Shown: positions 31,600 to 35,042 of the stretch, one piece after another
Layout: each line of letters opens with the position of its first letter
Position numbering within the stretch: the first letter of the stretch is position 1
Source of the DNA: a virus
Taxonomy: Duplodnaviria > Heunggongvirae > Uroviricota > Caudoviricetes
Virus record (IMG/VR): IMGVR_UViG_2778261068_000003
Span: 1-43,997 of that record
Direction: 5' to 3' (one strand)
DNA length: 43,997 bases
Notes under the pieces: generated by a model
What the model was told of the DNA's origin: nothing
Seen by the model: only the letters and a program-made list of their open reading frames with translations
The model's database searches: none
Made by a program: the position numbers and the translations under genes

Positions 31600-32488
31600 T
31601 CTTTCCACGATACCGGTTCCGGATATTGTTGATATTCCGGATACAGAATCGCTGGTCAGTCAGATAGTGGAGAAATACACCGAGCTTGACAGCCTGTTCT
31701 CTGCGCTTGTGGAGTCAGATCCCGCGTATAAATGGGCAGAGGCACTGGCTTTTCGTGTGGCACTGGTACGCCAGCAGATAAATGATGCTGTCAGGGCTGT
31801 ACTGCTTGCCAGTGCCTGTGGTGCCGATCTTGATCAGATCGGGGCAAATTTTCAGGTGCAACGTATGATGATTACGCCGCCGGATGACAGCACCGTGCCT
31901 CCGTCGCCTGCCGTGTATGAGGATGATGATGCATTTCGTGAACGCACCCAGTTGTCATGGGCGAGGCTCAGCACTGCTGGCGCGAAAAACGCATATCACT
32001 ATTTTGCACAGAGTGCCGATCCTGATGTGCTGGATGTGAAAGCCTACGGGCCGGAAACGCATGCACAGGAGGGACGGGTTTTTCTTTATGTGTTATCCCG
32101 TACCGGAGATGGTACGGCACCTCAGCCACTGCTGGATAAAGTGGCGGAGGCCGTGAACGATGATGAGATCCGTCCCCTGACGGATTTTGTCAGCGTCCGT
32201 TCAGCAGAGATCGTGGCTTATGATGTGGTGGCTGATATCCATATTCCTTATGGGCTGGATGGTGAACTGGTGATGGAGAGCGCCCGTCAGGCACTGCAGA
32301 AATATACAGACAGCGTTCACCGTATAGGCTCAGTGGCTGCCCGTTCGGGGATTGACGGCGCCCTGCATCAGAGTGGTGTGATCACCGTGGTCCTTCATTC
32401 CCCACCGGCAGATATTGTTCCGCAGATGGGACAGGCGCCGTGGTGTCGCTCAGTCACACTGAACAAGGTGGAGACAACCGATGAATGA
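31574..32488 (+). CDS. baseplate assembly protein J (P2 gpJ-like)
   Basis: Co-linear with P2 gpJ from ...IIDL onward; only TTG at 31574 is available as a start, with GAGGAG 7 nt upstream. Confidence 0.85.
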   Translation: MAASQAIIDLSTIPVPDIVDIPDTESLVSQIVEKYTELDSLFSALVESDPAYKWAEALAFRVALVRQQINDAVRAVLLASACGADLDQIGANFQVQRMMITPPDDSTVPPSPAVYEDDDAFRERTQLSWARLSTAGAKNAYHYFAQSADPDVLDVKAYGPETHAQEGRVFLYVLSRTGDGTAPQPLLDKVAEAVNDDEIRPLTDFVSVRSAEIVAYDVVADIHIPYGLDGELVMESARQALQKYTDSVHRIGSVAARSGIDGALHQSGVITVVLHSPPADIVPQMGQAPWCRSVTLNKVETTDE

Positions 32489-35042
32489 CAAAATAAAAAG
32501 CATTCTTCCGGTCAGCAGCAGCAGGGCAGAGCGGGTGGTGGACAGTGTGGGAGGCGATATGCTGGCAGCCGTTTCTCCCGGAGTTATCCGTGATGTGAAA
32601 AATCCGGATTGCTGTCCGGCTGTTCTGCTGCCGTGGCTGGCCTGGGAAGCCTCTGTGGACACATGGAATGATCACTGGACGGAGGATGAAAAGCGTGCCG
32701 CAATAAAACGGGCACCTTATATTCACCGCCATCGCGGAACAAAAGCGGCGCTGACAGAATCCCTGACAGACAGCCCGTTTCGCTCACGGATTATCGAGTG
32801 GTATGAACAGACGCCACCGGGAAAACCGTACACTTTTCGCCTGAATATTGAGCAAAAAGATATGCCGGTCCTGATGCGTGACCATCAGGATCTCAAACAT
32901 GCTGTCCTGCGGGCTAAAAATCTCCGTAGCTGGTTCAGTATTCATATTTACGGAAACTGCCGCGGCACTGCGTATGGTTATGGCTATATCACCGCGACGG
33001 AAAAAATCACGGGACTTCCGGTTCCGCAAATCCGTCTGTCACCGGATGCACTGCATTTATCCCCCGGAGAGGAGGCCGGTGTCACGGTGACGGTTGTGCC
33101 GCCATCCACGTTTACCGCCAGTGTGGAGGATCCTTTATTAGCTGAGGTCTCTGTCAGTGGTGAGCTGATGCTGGTCACTGCCCTTCATGAAGGGCAAACG
33201 ACGATCGCTGTGGCCACGCCGGAAGGAGGGCGCGCGGTGCTGCCTGTCAGTGTCACTGCGGCTGAAAGTGTGGTGACCGTTGTGCTCCGTGCGGGAAGCC
33301 GGGAAGAGCCGGTGTTTTTTGTCGATGCCGGAGAGAGCGGATTTACCGTGGATTACGGAGACGGCCCCGGTACGGCGTTCACGGTGACAGAGGGGGAGGT
33401 CAGAACCACACGTCAGTTTTCTGAAGGTGAGGTTCTGACGCTGACCATCAGAAACAGTGAGACGGTGAGGTTTTTCAGCCCGTCAGCAACCGTAAAATCC
33501 TGGGCGTTGCTGGAAATTATCCGTGTCAGCGGTCAGCGCAGAAGTATGAGTCAGTTTGCAAATACCTGCAGTTCGTTGTCCCGTATTCATGAGGGGGCTT
33601 TTGAGCATCTTCCATATGTGGAGGATTTCAGCCAGGCGTTTCGTGGCTGCCGTGATCTGTCTGCGTTACCGGAAAGACTGTTTCTGTCCTGCCCGCGTGT
33701 CAGAAGTTTTTCACACACGTTTTATGGCTGTCATGCGCTGAAAGAAATCCCGCCGGATTTGTTTGCGGCTGCCACGGAAGTGGAGACATTTGATTATGTG
33801 TTTTATTCCTGTGGCCTGGAACGTCTGCCGGAGGGGCTGTTCTCTGCGGCGGCAAAAGCCAGTAATTTTTCCCGGGCACTGGCGGAGAATGACAGTCTGA
33901 CAGCGCTGCCGGAGGGGCTGTTCCGTGGTGCATCAGGCGCGCTCACGTTTGACGGTGTTTTTGCCGGGTGCAGCAGACTGACGCATCTGCCGGAGAACCT
34001 GTTTGCCGGGCTGAGCAGGGCCCGAAGTTTTTACCGTGCATTTCAGCTCAGCGGGCTTACTGAATTACCTGGTGGCTTATTCCGCGACACGGCAGGCGTG
34101 GTGTTTGAGGAGGTGTTTGATGACTGCGCCTCGCTCGTCTCCGTACCCGACAGCCTTTTTGATATGCGCACTCTCCCGGAGACGCCGCAGATAGTTCTGG
34201 ACAGCGCATTCAGCAGTTGCAAAGGGCTGAAAACCATTGGCCCGCAGGCATTCAGCCGTATTGCATCCGGCATTCTCTCCTGCAGGGATCTGTTCAGTTA
34301 CTGCCATGGCCTGACATCTGTGCCCGATCGCCTGCTGGCAGGAATGCATAACTGCCAGGATGCTGACGGCGTATTCCGGTCATGCAGTAATCTGCATCAC
34401 ACCGGAGATGAGATTTTCCGTGATGCCGGTGTGACGGAGCTGGAGGATGTCTTCGAATACTGCAAAGCGCTTGAATATACCGGCAATCGTCTGTTTGCAG
34501 GGTGTCAGGCACTGAAATCAGTGAAGAGTCTGTTTTACCGGTGCAGTGCGCTGGTTTCTGTCGGGAACGGTATGTTTTCCGGTTGTGGCCAGATGACGCG
34601 GGCTTACAACGTGTTCAGTAACACGGCGCTGGCACAAATTCCGGCGGACACGTTTCAGGGATGCCGGGCGCTGGAGAGTGTGGATCAGCTGTTTATTCAG
34701 TGCGCGGCGCTGACGGCGTTACCGGAGGGGATTTTTGTTGAGACGGTTGTCACCAGTCTTGAACGGGCCTTCAGCGGCTGTCTGAATCTTCAGTCTGTTC
34801 CGCCTGATTTTATCGTGCCACAGGAAAACACTGTCAGCCTGCGTTACACCTTTGAAGGCTGCACCTCCCTGAATGTAAATATCAGCACATTATTCACCGC
34901 AGTTTTTCCCCGGAGATCTTCCATCGTATACGTATTTAAGAACTGTTCATCAGTGACCGGAAGCCGTTCGGCATTTCTGGCGAATTTTCCCGATGCATGG
35001 GATGACGGTGCATTTGAGAACTGCGACAGGCTTGAAGAGTAA
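32481..35042 (+). CDS. P2 gpI-like baseplate protein with C-terminal Ig-like domain and leucine-rich repeat array (putative receptor-binding protein)
   Basis: First ~180 aa co-linear with P2 gpI (...PAVLLPWLAWEASVDTWNDHWTEDEKRAAIKRA...); then a Big_2-like segment and ~20 repeats of ~23 aa with the pattern F..C..L..lP..lF. Confidence 0.7.
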   Translation: MNDKIKSILPVSSSRAERVVDSVGGDMLAAVSPGVIRDVKNPDCCPAVLLPWLAWEASVDTWNDHWTEDEKRAAIKRAPYIHRHRGTKAALTESLTDSPFRSRIIEWYEQTPPGKPYTFRLNIEQKDMPVLMRDHQDLKHAVLRAKNLRSWFSIHIYGNCRGTAYGYGYITATEKITGLPVPQIRLSPDALHLSPGEEAGVTVTVVPPSTFTASVEDPLLAEVSVSGELMLVTALHEGQTTIAVATPEGGRAVLPVSVTAAESVVTVVLRAGSREEPVFFVDAGESGFTVDYGDGPGTAFTVTEGEVRTTRQFSEGEVLTLTIRNSETVRFFSPSATVKSWALLEIIRVSGQRRSMSQFANTCSSLSRIHEGAFEHLPYVEDFSQAFRGCRDLSALPERLFLSCPRVRSFSHTFYGCHALKEIPPDLFAAATEVETFDYVFYSCGLERLPEGLFSAAAKASNFSRALAENDSLTALPEGLFRGASGALTFDGVFAGCSRLTHLPENLFAGLSRARSFYRAFQLSGLTELPGGLFRDTAGVVFEEVFDDCASLVSVPDSLFDMRTLPETPQIVLDSAFSSCKGLKTIGPQAFSRIASGILSCRDLFSYCHGLTSVPDRLLAGMHNCQDADGVFRSCSNLHHTGDEIFRDAGVTELEDVFEYCKALEYTGNRLFAGCQALKSVKSLFYRCSALVSVGNGMFSGCGQMTRAYNVFSNTALAQIPADTFQGCRALESVDQLFIQCAALTALPEGIFVETVVTSLERAFSGCLNLQSVPPDFIVPQENTVSLRYTFEGCTSLNVNISTLFTAVFPRRSSIVYVFKNCSSVTGSRSAFLANFPDAWDDGAFENCDRLEE

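Follow-up and report, generated by a model that had tools for sequence, protein, structure and literature searches.

The baseplate wedge protein BW3, represented by gpI of phage P2, PA0619 (Tri2) of pyocin R2 and gp7 of phage T4, forms a (BW2)2-BW3 heterotrimer at the periphery of the baseplate, where receptor-binding proteins (RBPs) attach (PMC10811340). Canonical gpI proteins consist of about 170–260 amino acid residues (aa) and do not themselves carry a binding module. A large size is shared by T4 gp7, in which we know of no leucine-rich repeat (LRR). Here, we analyzed a stretch of 43,997 nucleotides (nt) (the window hereafter; positions 1 to 43,997 of IMG/VR record IMGVR_UViG_2778261068_000003), which is a whole integrated prophage of Escherichia albertii, and focused on a gene at 32481–35042 that encodes a gpI of 853 aa (the gpI-LRR gene hereafter). 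The N-terminal 150 aa of its product are homologous to P2 gpI, Tri2 and the other BW3 proteins, the gene stands in the same J-I-H-chaperone order, and the protein would have the same role as a peripheral wedge subunit and platform for fibre attachment. Unlike the canonical proteins, it carries an additional stalk and LRR solenoid of about 670 aa. With moderate confidence, we interpret this extension as an accessory receptor-binding arm that would be present in six monomeric copies per baseplate and would bind a component of the bacterial envelope. The protein sequence and its domain annotation were already public; what is new here is the recognition of a putative portable, monomeric LRR host-recognition cassette fused to a wedge protein.

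The product of the gpI-LRR gene is identical to NCBI WP_105211244.1, annotated as 'phage tail protein I [Escherichia albertii]'. The original prediction, made from the DNA sequence alone, had read a gpI-like N-terminus, a Big_2 segment and BspA/LRR_5-type repeats in this open reading frame (ORF), and all three Pfam domains were found with scores above their gathering scores. Tail_P2_I (PF09684) matched aa 9–149 with an E-value of 2.5e-35 (121.8 bits; threshold, 20.6), the NCBIfam equivalog TIGR01634 ('phage tail protein I') scored 91.4 bits against a cut-off of 30.05, and aa 9–128 matched pyocin R2 Tri2 PA0619 (PDB 6u5b chain 0) with an E-value of 3.9e-19. The same PDB entry was also hit by Foldseek. 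These matches indicate that the protein is a true member of the Tail_P2_I family, departing only from its usual size. The length of about 180 aa originally assumed for an ordinary gpI agreed with that of Tri2 (177 aa) and with a survey of gpI relatives, in which 2,962 hits were obtained from a representative library of 1.84 billion proteins and lengths were taken from the best 150. Among these 150, 117 proteins had at most 260 aa (median, 208), 19 had 261–500 aa, and 14 exceeded 500 aa, 11 of the latter being among the 16 closest relatives.

A structure model was generated with AlphaFold2 from 38 homologues. Its mean predicted local distance difference test score (pLDDT) was 85.7, and most residues of aa 181–853 scored above 90. 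The pLDDT was below 50 over aa 144–180, and the anchor was also modeled at low confidence, as can be anticipated for a protein whose folding takes place within a hetero-oligomer. Two Ig-like domains follow the linker. Big_2 matched aa 180–247 with 24.9 bits against a gathering score of 22.8; a Big_2-like segment had been placed at 33060..33270 in the original prediction, close to the position found here, and the second Ig-like domain had been missed. In this second domain, F279, D294 and G295 were invariant among orthologues, and T289, D291, Y292 and G293 were nearly so. For aa 261–350, no Pfam match was obtained at E ≤ 5, and the PKD profile, which was tried owing to the DYGDG motif, did not match; the model suggests a generic Ig/PKD-like domain at the fold level. 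The stalk gave no indication of an enzymatic or carbohydrate-binding module.

The remainder of the protein is a solenoid of LRRs. LRR_5 (PF13306), with a gathering score of 27.7, matched the whole protein with 44.7 bits and aa 351–853 with 49.7 bits. Autocorrelation of aa 341–853, scored with BLOSUM62 against 300 shuffles, peaked at lag 27 (z = 11.4), with further peaks at lags 53 (z = 9.5) and 80 (z = 9.0) and a weaker half-period at 13–14 (z = 4.5–4.9), whereas the N-terminal 340 aa used as a control peaked at z = 3.5. The repeat period was 26–27 aa, with outlier units of 28 and 31 aa, and the consensus was F-x-x-C-x-x-L-x-x-h-P-x-x-h-F-(x5)-h-x-x-h-x-x-x. A cysteine occupied one fixed position of the repeat in 16 of the 19 units. 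The cysteine-containing LRR array of the original prediction was thus real, although its estimates of about 23 residues per unit and about 20 units gave way to 26–27 aa and about 18.5 units. Across orthologues, in which the F..C..L motif occurred 7 to 29 times, this cysteine was among the most conserved positions (0.84), and core and surface positions of the repeat differed in conservation. Its fixed position and conservation make the cysteine a 'ladder' residue of the core rather than part of a scattered disulfide pattern, and the LRR pattern suggests that it is buried.

Structure prediction, which had been proposed as a check, gave a solenoid with pLDDT values mostly above 95. Foldseek matched it to the BspA-type LRR structures 4gt6 (E 6e-6) and 4h09 (E 7e-5) and to PcpA (4cp6, E 7e-4), and TLR-type LRRs of the PDB were matched too; the TM-scores were low, probably owing to differences in curvature and length. 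The solenoid is therefore a true LRR of the LRR_5 (BspA) type, and not the standard tail-fibre fold that had been considered as a counter-possibility. None of these structure matches was a solved tail protein of a phage with an LRR solenoid. The repeats also resemble those of the PARCEL family, in which units of 25–26 residues are canonical and non-canonical lengths are permitted as well in the PARCEL paper. TIGR02167 ('26-residue repeat') scored 24 bits, below its cut-off of 30, and DUF285 was not reported at E ≤ 5; the Klebsiella orthologue P0023 passed TIGR02167 at 51 bits, and P0045 and P0049 passed DUF285. The dyad symmetry that defines PARCEL DNA was absent, with a single weak inverted repeat of 14 nt in 1.5 kb. 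The solenoid is thus a relative, rather than a threshold-passing member, of the PARCEL/TIGR02167/DUF285 repeat family. The suggestion that the repeats are a substrate for recombination was not supported: TRF detected no DNA repeat array in the gene, and the best direct-repeat copies were only 64–77% identical over 26–30 nt, too dissimilar at the DNA level to support homologous recombination between units.

Seven more near-identical sequences were found at NCBI in independent E. albertii assemblies. In the comparison with gpI orthologues, most proteins were short, and fused forms of 593–1049 aa were common in prophages of Escherichia, Salmonella and Klebsiella; fused orthologues were found in E. 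coli, Salmonella, Klebsiella and Trabulsiella. At ≥90% identity, a single Klebsiella cluster comprised 1,551 member sequences from several Klebsiella species. Klebsiella phage ST16-OXA48phi5.4 (Peduoviridae, Reipivirus) is a deposited phage with the fusion, annotated as gp35, 'tail protein I'. The protein analyzed here also matched PHROG 9915 ('unknown function') with an E-value of 3e-218; gp35 and the prophage proteins of PHROG 9915 have the same layout of gpI, Big_2, second beta-domain and LRR, with 38% identity over 94% of the length. The Klebsiella type differs in that it has 1008 aa, exceeds the PARCEL-repeat threshold and is always followed by a conserved small acidic ORF of 65–76 aa (MKTFNQLKSLIDFCQTD...DDFY.RL..VYGI). 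This ORF was found immediately 3′ of the Klebsiella-type LRR cassette on four tail chassis (9003–9215 in locus L001, 11024–11230 in L003, 11270–11467 in L004 and 11216–11446 in L005), with pairwise identities of 50–82%, and was absent from the window and the E. coli loci. Its product may accompany the Klebsiella-type cassette as a chaperone or adaptor.

The nearest cultured phages with the tail chassis of the window are Hafnia phage yong2 and Citrobacter phage Chris1, whose sheath proteins are 61–62% identical to that of the window. Their gpI proteins consist of 183 and 187 aa, and their fibres are longer, with 596 and 552 aa, respectively. The short gpI of both phages indicates that one enterobacterial lineage has gained the arm as an accessory. 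The fibres of the LRR-arm lineage were short (320–474 aa across loci and 345 aa in the window), which may mean that arm length is traded off against fibre length.

Sequence comparison across loci located the boundary between the conserved and the exchanged part of the protein. The anchor was 79–84% identical to its E. coli and Salmonella orthologues, while the first Ig-like domain, the second Ig-like domain and the LRR were 36–48% identical and the distal part as a whole 36–45%, and the drop from about 83% to about 42% was located at the linker. In the nucleotide profile against the E. coli locus L002, identity was about 75–90% up to about 32,940 and about 45–55% from 33,030 to 35,010. The fibre attachment domain stood out as a partly conserved island (35,010–35,550); identity was 29–50% over the fibre tip and chaperone, and it rose abruptly to about 89% at 36,630. 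Compared with the proteins of L002, gpI was 49% identical overall, the fibre aligned over aa 1–168 only, and the chaperone was 25% identical; the remaining tail proteins were 81–95% identical, except the tape-measure protein with 76%. The distal part of gpI, the fibre tip and the chaperone together make up the only variable block of this tail module. In three pairs of proteins with the cassette, the distal part was the more similar one, with anchor and distal identities of 19% and 71% (P0023 and P0047), 17% and 54% (P0023 and P0049), and 44% and 72% (P0025 and P0043), respectively. The converse was also observed, anchors with 90–95% identity being joined to distal parts only 31–49% identical.

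The cassette was found on at least four unrelated tail chassis, namely P2-type, HP1-type and E217-type contractile tails and a non-contractile phiJL001/GTA-type tail. In E217-type tails, it is fused to a Phage_Wedge1 protein, again directly after Baseplate_J; in the phiJL001/GTA-type tail, the cassette gene is the last tail gene, with no fibre gene after it. Orthologues do differ in unit number, but variation on the visible timescale consists of exchange of the whole cassette at the linker (around nt 32990) together with point substitutions on the surface. A conserved virion-attachment part is thus joined to an exchangeable distal part within a host-range gene block, as in RBPs. Classical modular RBPs share this signature: their anchor is conserved, the breakpoint is sharp, the distal module is exchanged between chassis, and the gene lies in the host-range block. 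They are trimeric, beta-helical or fibrous products of separate genes that dock onto gpI, whereas the LRR module is presumably monomeric and is covalently part of gpI.

We propose that the first 150 residues or so are built into a (gpJ)2-gpI wedge, with one copy per wedge; from the placement of BW3 in baseplates (PMC10811340), six copies of the arm per baseplate would be expected. The flexible linker of about 30 residues and the two Ig-like spacers would hold out a monomeric LRR solenoid of about 18.5 turns, with a length of roughly 9 nm at about 4.8 Å per turn, and the variable solvent-facing LRR positions would bind a component of the bacterial envelope. The arm would act beside the conventional trimeric tail fibre, either as the primary reversible contact or as a co-receptor device. 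Because the fibre is still encoded with its conserved attachment domain, the virion would have two independent specificity devices. Specificity could shift by replacement of the stalk and LRR cassette through recombination at the linker, or by surface substitutions while the F/C/L/P core stays fixed. Position, exchange of the module, assortment independent of the fibre tip and the selection pattern all lend strong, if indirect, support to the second receptor-binding function suggested in the original prediction. The analysis shows the architecture and fold of the protein, its modularity, assortment and selection pattern and, from the literature and PDB homology, the position of the anchor family in baseplates; we infer the presence of the arm on virions, its stoichiometry and its binding to a ligand on the bacterial surface.

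The arm might instead be structural or regulatory in the virion, docking or restraining the fibres, or stabilizing or spacing the baseplate, without contacting the cell. LRRs are generic scaffolds for protein–protein interaction, the arm shares the variable block with the fibre and chaperone, as co-evolving partners also would, and the extra domains of T4 gp7 organize other baseplate proteins. Proteins of the BW3/gp7 type are, moreover, the attachment platform for fibre networks (PMC10811340). However, the LRR arm and the fibre tip assort independently. The LRR arms of L002 and L008 were 85% identical, while their fibre tips were unrelated (26%; 336 vs 474 aa), and other combinations were found: the window and L011 had chaperones with 62% identity and arms with 37% identity. 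Over the E. coli loci, the N-terminal 165–168 aa of the fibre were 69–73% identical to those of the window and the fibre tip 21–30%; the chaperone was 25–35% identical to those of L002 and L008–L010. An obligate pairing of LRR and fibre was ruled out by this independent assortment. The cassette also occurs on chassis with quite different fibres and on the non-contractile tail that has no following fibre gene, and the relatives with a short gpI assemble fibres without an arm. We consider a role confined to the virion itself unlikely, although it is the strongest of the alternatives. As a separate observation, L011, the E. coli locus of P0010, contained an extra ORF of 93 aa at 6422–6703 between the LRR gene and the fibre gene, and the N-terminal domain of its fibre was divergent, with about 37–44% identity to the others.

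A receptor-binding arm directed at bacteria may be compared with one that adheres to a non-bacterial target, such as animal mucus, epithelium or extracellular matrix, and thereby keeps virions in the gut niche or affects the animal host. BspA-family LRR proteins are adhesins to animal tissue, and retention in the gut niche has been proposed for Ig-like decorations of capsids. Among solved structures, the nearest folds are those of bacterial cell-surface proteins, pneumococcal PcpA being one of them; Ig-like domains are present here, and the hosts are gut or pathogenic Enterobacteriaceae. Nevertheless, the arm is fused to the baseplate and not to the capsid, it lies within the host-range block adjoining the fibre and chaperone, the cassette types cluster by bacterial genus across differing tail chassis, and comparable LRR proteins are found in phages from marine and environmental sources, for which there is no animal host. 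Adhesion to an animal target is therefore improbable in our view, and its most radical form, a temperate-phage baseplate with six eukaryote-directed adhesin arms that bind mucin, matrix or an epithelial receptor, is a shade more improbable still. Less radically, the arm may define a new class of phage receptor-binding modules, monomeric, protein-recognizing and chassis-independent, that can move between contractile and non-contractile tails.

The ratios of nonsynonymous to synonymous substitution rates (dN/dS) were calculated among four E. coli loci by the Nei-Gojobori method. They were 0.04–0.07 for gpJ and sheath, 0.03–0.08 for the gpI anchor, 0.13–0.25 for the Ig domains, 0.02–0.09 for the core positions of the LRR and 0.24–0.32 for its non-core positions. 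The surface positions of the LRR thus evolve 4–6 times faster than the chassis, and the dS of the gpI gene exceeded that of both gpJ and sheath. Of the 14 substitutions that distinguish near-identical E. albertii alleles, which are not independent samples, 13 fell in the LRR, which occupies 59% of the protein length. Purifying selection combined with a faster-evolving surface indicates that the arm is a constrained, functional protein. These values bear on the view that the extension is a dispensable or decaying decoration without specific function, carried along by recombination. Close relatives (yong2 and Chris1) do manage without an arm, and the length of the fused proteins varies widely, from 593 to 1049 aa. 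The core is nevertheless under strong purifying selection with an ordered constraint along the repeat, thousands of genomes and four chassis retain an intact frame, and the fold is predicted with high confidence, all of which make a functionless decoration very improbable. An artefact in which a gpI gene and a separate LRR gene are joined by a sequencing frameshift, an outcome that the original prediction had allowed for, is effectively refuted: the linker is poorly structured and NCBI holds partial records ('leucine-rich repeat protein, partial' and 'phage tail protein I, partial'), but these records stem from short contigs of 1.1–1.5 kb, the ORF is continuous, the next gene is only 13 nt away, several independent assemblies of E. 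albertii contain the identical 853-aa protein, and the same fusion recurs in E. coli, Salmonella, Klebsiella, Trabulsiella and one deposited phage genome.

Several points weigh against the proposed receptor-binding arm. Average positive selection was not seen, dN/dS being below 1 in every class, and diversifying selection was not demonstrated. Most known RBPs are trimeric, and the PDB structure search gave no solved phage precedent for a monomeric LRR RBP. In the literature, no binding, adsorption or virion-proteomics data were found for any member of the family. The high conservation of one allele across Klebsiella species, seen in the large cluster described above, argues against a capsule-type hypervariable ligand. 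Similar cassettes within a genus could reflect more frequent recombination among co-resident phages. In addition, because the gpI domain was modeled at low confidence, the model does not tell how the arm is placed with respect to the fibre.

BspA-type LRR_5 proteins and PARCEL/DUF285/TIGR02167 proteins have the same solenoid fold, the F..C..L..P core and a period near 26; they are surface proteins of bacteria, protists or giant viruses with signal peptides or anchors, whereas the solenoid described here is anchored in a phage baseplate. DUF285 proteins have been detected in giant-virus particles (PMC7507832). In jumbo phages, predicted LRR or beta-helix host-recognition proteins (such as DUF7941 proteins of Goslar, gp353 of Eowyn and gp353 of Bacillus phage G) likewise carry an LRR-type solenoid after a phage-specific attachment module. 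They differ from the gpI-LRR protein in their anchor (DUF7941 or unassigned, vs gpI), in identity (21–24%) and in that the phages are lytic; their association with virions has been shown or proposed for Goslar only, and their function is predicted. A role in host recognition was proposed for the DUF7941 LRR proteins by the Goslar authors (bioRxiv 10.64898/2026.04.21.720040), and LRR/PARCEL domains in jumbo phage pir03 are known from annotation or prediction only (PMC7765460). In the literature search, no experimental work on an LRR receptor-binding protein was found for P2-like phages or for any other tailed phage.

The coordinates of the gene, its domains and its surroundings are listed in Table 1. 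The tail genes are arranged in the order gpV, gpW, gpJ, gpI-LRR gene, fibre, chaperone, sheath, tube and tape measure, and the end of gpJ overlaps the start of the gpI-LRR gene by 8 nt. The separate fibre and chaperone that the original prediction had recognized downstream were recovered by their Pfam domains. The ATG start of gpV at 30585 is probable and was taken from the ORF translation, and the hairpin before the sheath gene was called by a consensus match only.

Table 1. Positions of the gpI-LRR gene, its domains and other features of the prophage in the window (aa numbering refers to the 853-aa protein)
Feature	Position (nt)	Strand	Evidence or remark
Integrase	1086–2204	-	In window
ORF of 819 aa beside integrase	2504–4963	-	Rv2179c-like 3′-5′ exoribonuclease domain, C-terminal, E 7.5e-65
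DUF968 protein, weak HNH-nuclease signature	13342–14391	+	Early/regulatory region of prophage
gpV-like baseplate spike	30585–31208	+	89% identical to 207-aa L002 protein at same position; weak Apex-motif match
gpW/gp25-like baseplate wedge protein	31243–31599	+	Pfam GPW_gp25, E 2e-15
gpJ (Baseplate_J), wedge partner of gpI	31574–32488	+	Pfam E 5.6e-22; 86% identical to L002
gpI-LRR gene (gpI anchor, linker, Ig-like domains 1 and 2, LRR solenoid; 853 aa + stop)	32481–35042	+	Continuous ORF
gpI/Tri2-type baseplate wedge anchor, aa 1–150	32481–32930	+	Tail_P2_I, TIGR01634, pyocin R2 Tri2 homology
Flexible linker, putative recombination breakpoint, aa 151–180	32931–33020	+	Low pLDDT; identity drop vs L002
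Ig-like domain 1 (Big_2, PF02368), aa 181–260	33021–33260	+	Pfam and Ig-like fold
Ig-like domain 2, D-Y-G-D-G motif, aa 261–350	33261–33530	+	AlphaFold2 beta-sandwich, pLDDT about 90 or higher
LRR solenoid: N-terminal cap, then about 18.5 units (aa 360–853; nt 33558–35039, 1.48 kb)	33531–35039	+	Periodicity, LRR_5, AlphaFold2
Tail fibre, 345 aa, conserved N-terminal attachment domain and variable tip	35056–36093	+	Pfam Phage_tail_fib, E 1.3e-11; PHROG tail-fibre families
Tail fibre assembly chaperone	36096–36638	+	Pfam Caudo_TAP, E 1.1e-20
Terminator-like hairpin, right edge of variable block, just before sheath gene	36655–36676	+	8-bp stem with 5 G-C pairs, then T run
Variable host-range block: distal gpI, fibre and chaperone, conserved chassis on both sides	32990–36630	+	Sliding nucleotide identity vs L002
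Host nadE	43170–43997	-	Right end of window

As a mosaic, the prophage combines lambda/phage 21-type head genes (21661–28497) with a P2/Mu-type contractile tail (30585–42612). The head and packaging genes are of the lambda type, encoding a gpA terminase, a lambda-family portal, an S49 protease and a gpE capsid protein, and the capsid gene has about 75% nucleotide identity to that of phage 21. The E. coli locus L002 has the same tail chassis (sheath, 95% identical) combined with a different head module that includes a Clp-protease/capsid fusion, and its portal and terminase are only about 24% identical to those of the window. Megablast against complete E. coli genomes gave no match of near-identical DNA. 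The baseplate-region DNA had no close relative among deposited phages, the sole match being the lambda/phage 21-type capsid gene. For attL/attR of the integration site, which adjoins nadE, no direct repeat of at least 12 nt was found between 1–1300 and 42500–43300 of the window, and there were no tRNA genes in the window. The N-terminal 630 aa or so of the large ORF beside the integrase had no Pfam assignment.

Long gpI proteins were also observed outside the clade of the gpI-LRR protein. Examples are P0082 (634 aa) and P0137 (592 aa), whose C-terminal extensions are of other kinds, match no Pfam family and lack F..C..L repeats. A motif similar to 'LxFDG.DD' is present in both and is reminiscent of LamG/concanavalin-type domains. 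It may be that gpI serves generally as a platform to which accessory binding domains are joined.

If the gpI-LRR protein is a receptor-binding arm, many temperate phages of Klebsiella, Escherichia and Salmonella would carry a second host-range determinant, one that is overlooked by present host-range prediction and engineering, which consider fibres and spikes only. A monomeric solenoid placed covalently on a wedge protein would also be a simple handle to retarget phages or tailocins; LRR scaffolds suit engineered specificity, and the cassette is already present on at least four unrelated tail chassis. Finally, the arm would provide a concrete function for the very widespread and uncharacterized BspA/PARCEL-type LRR family in viruses.

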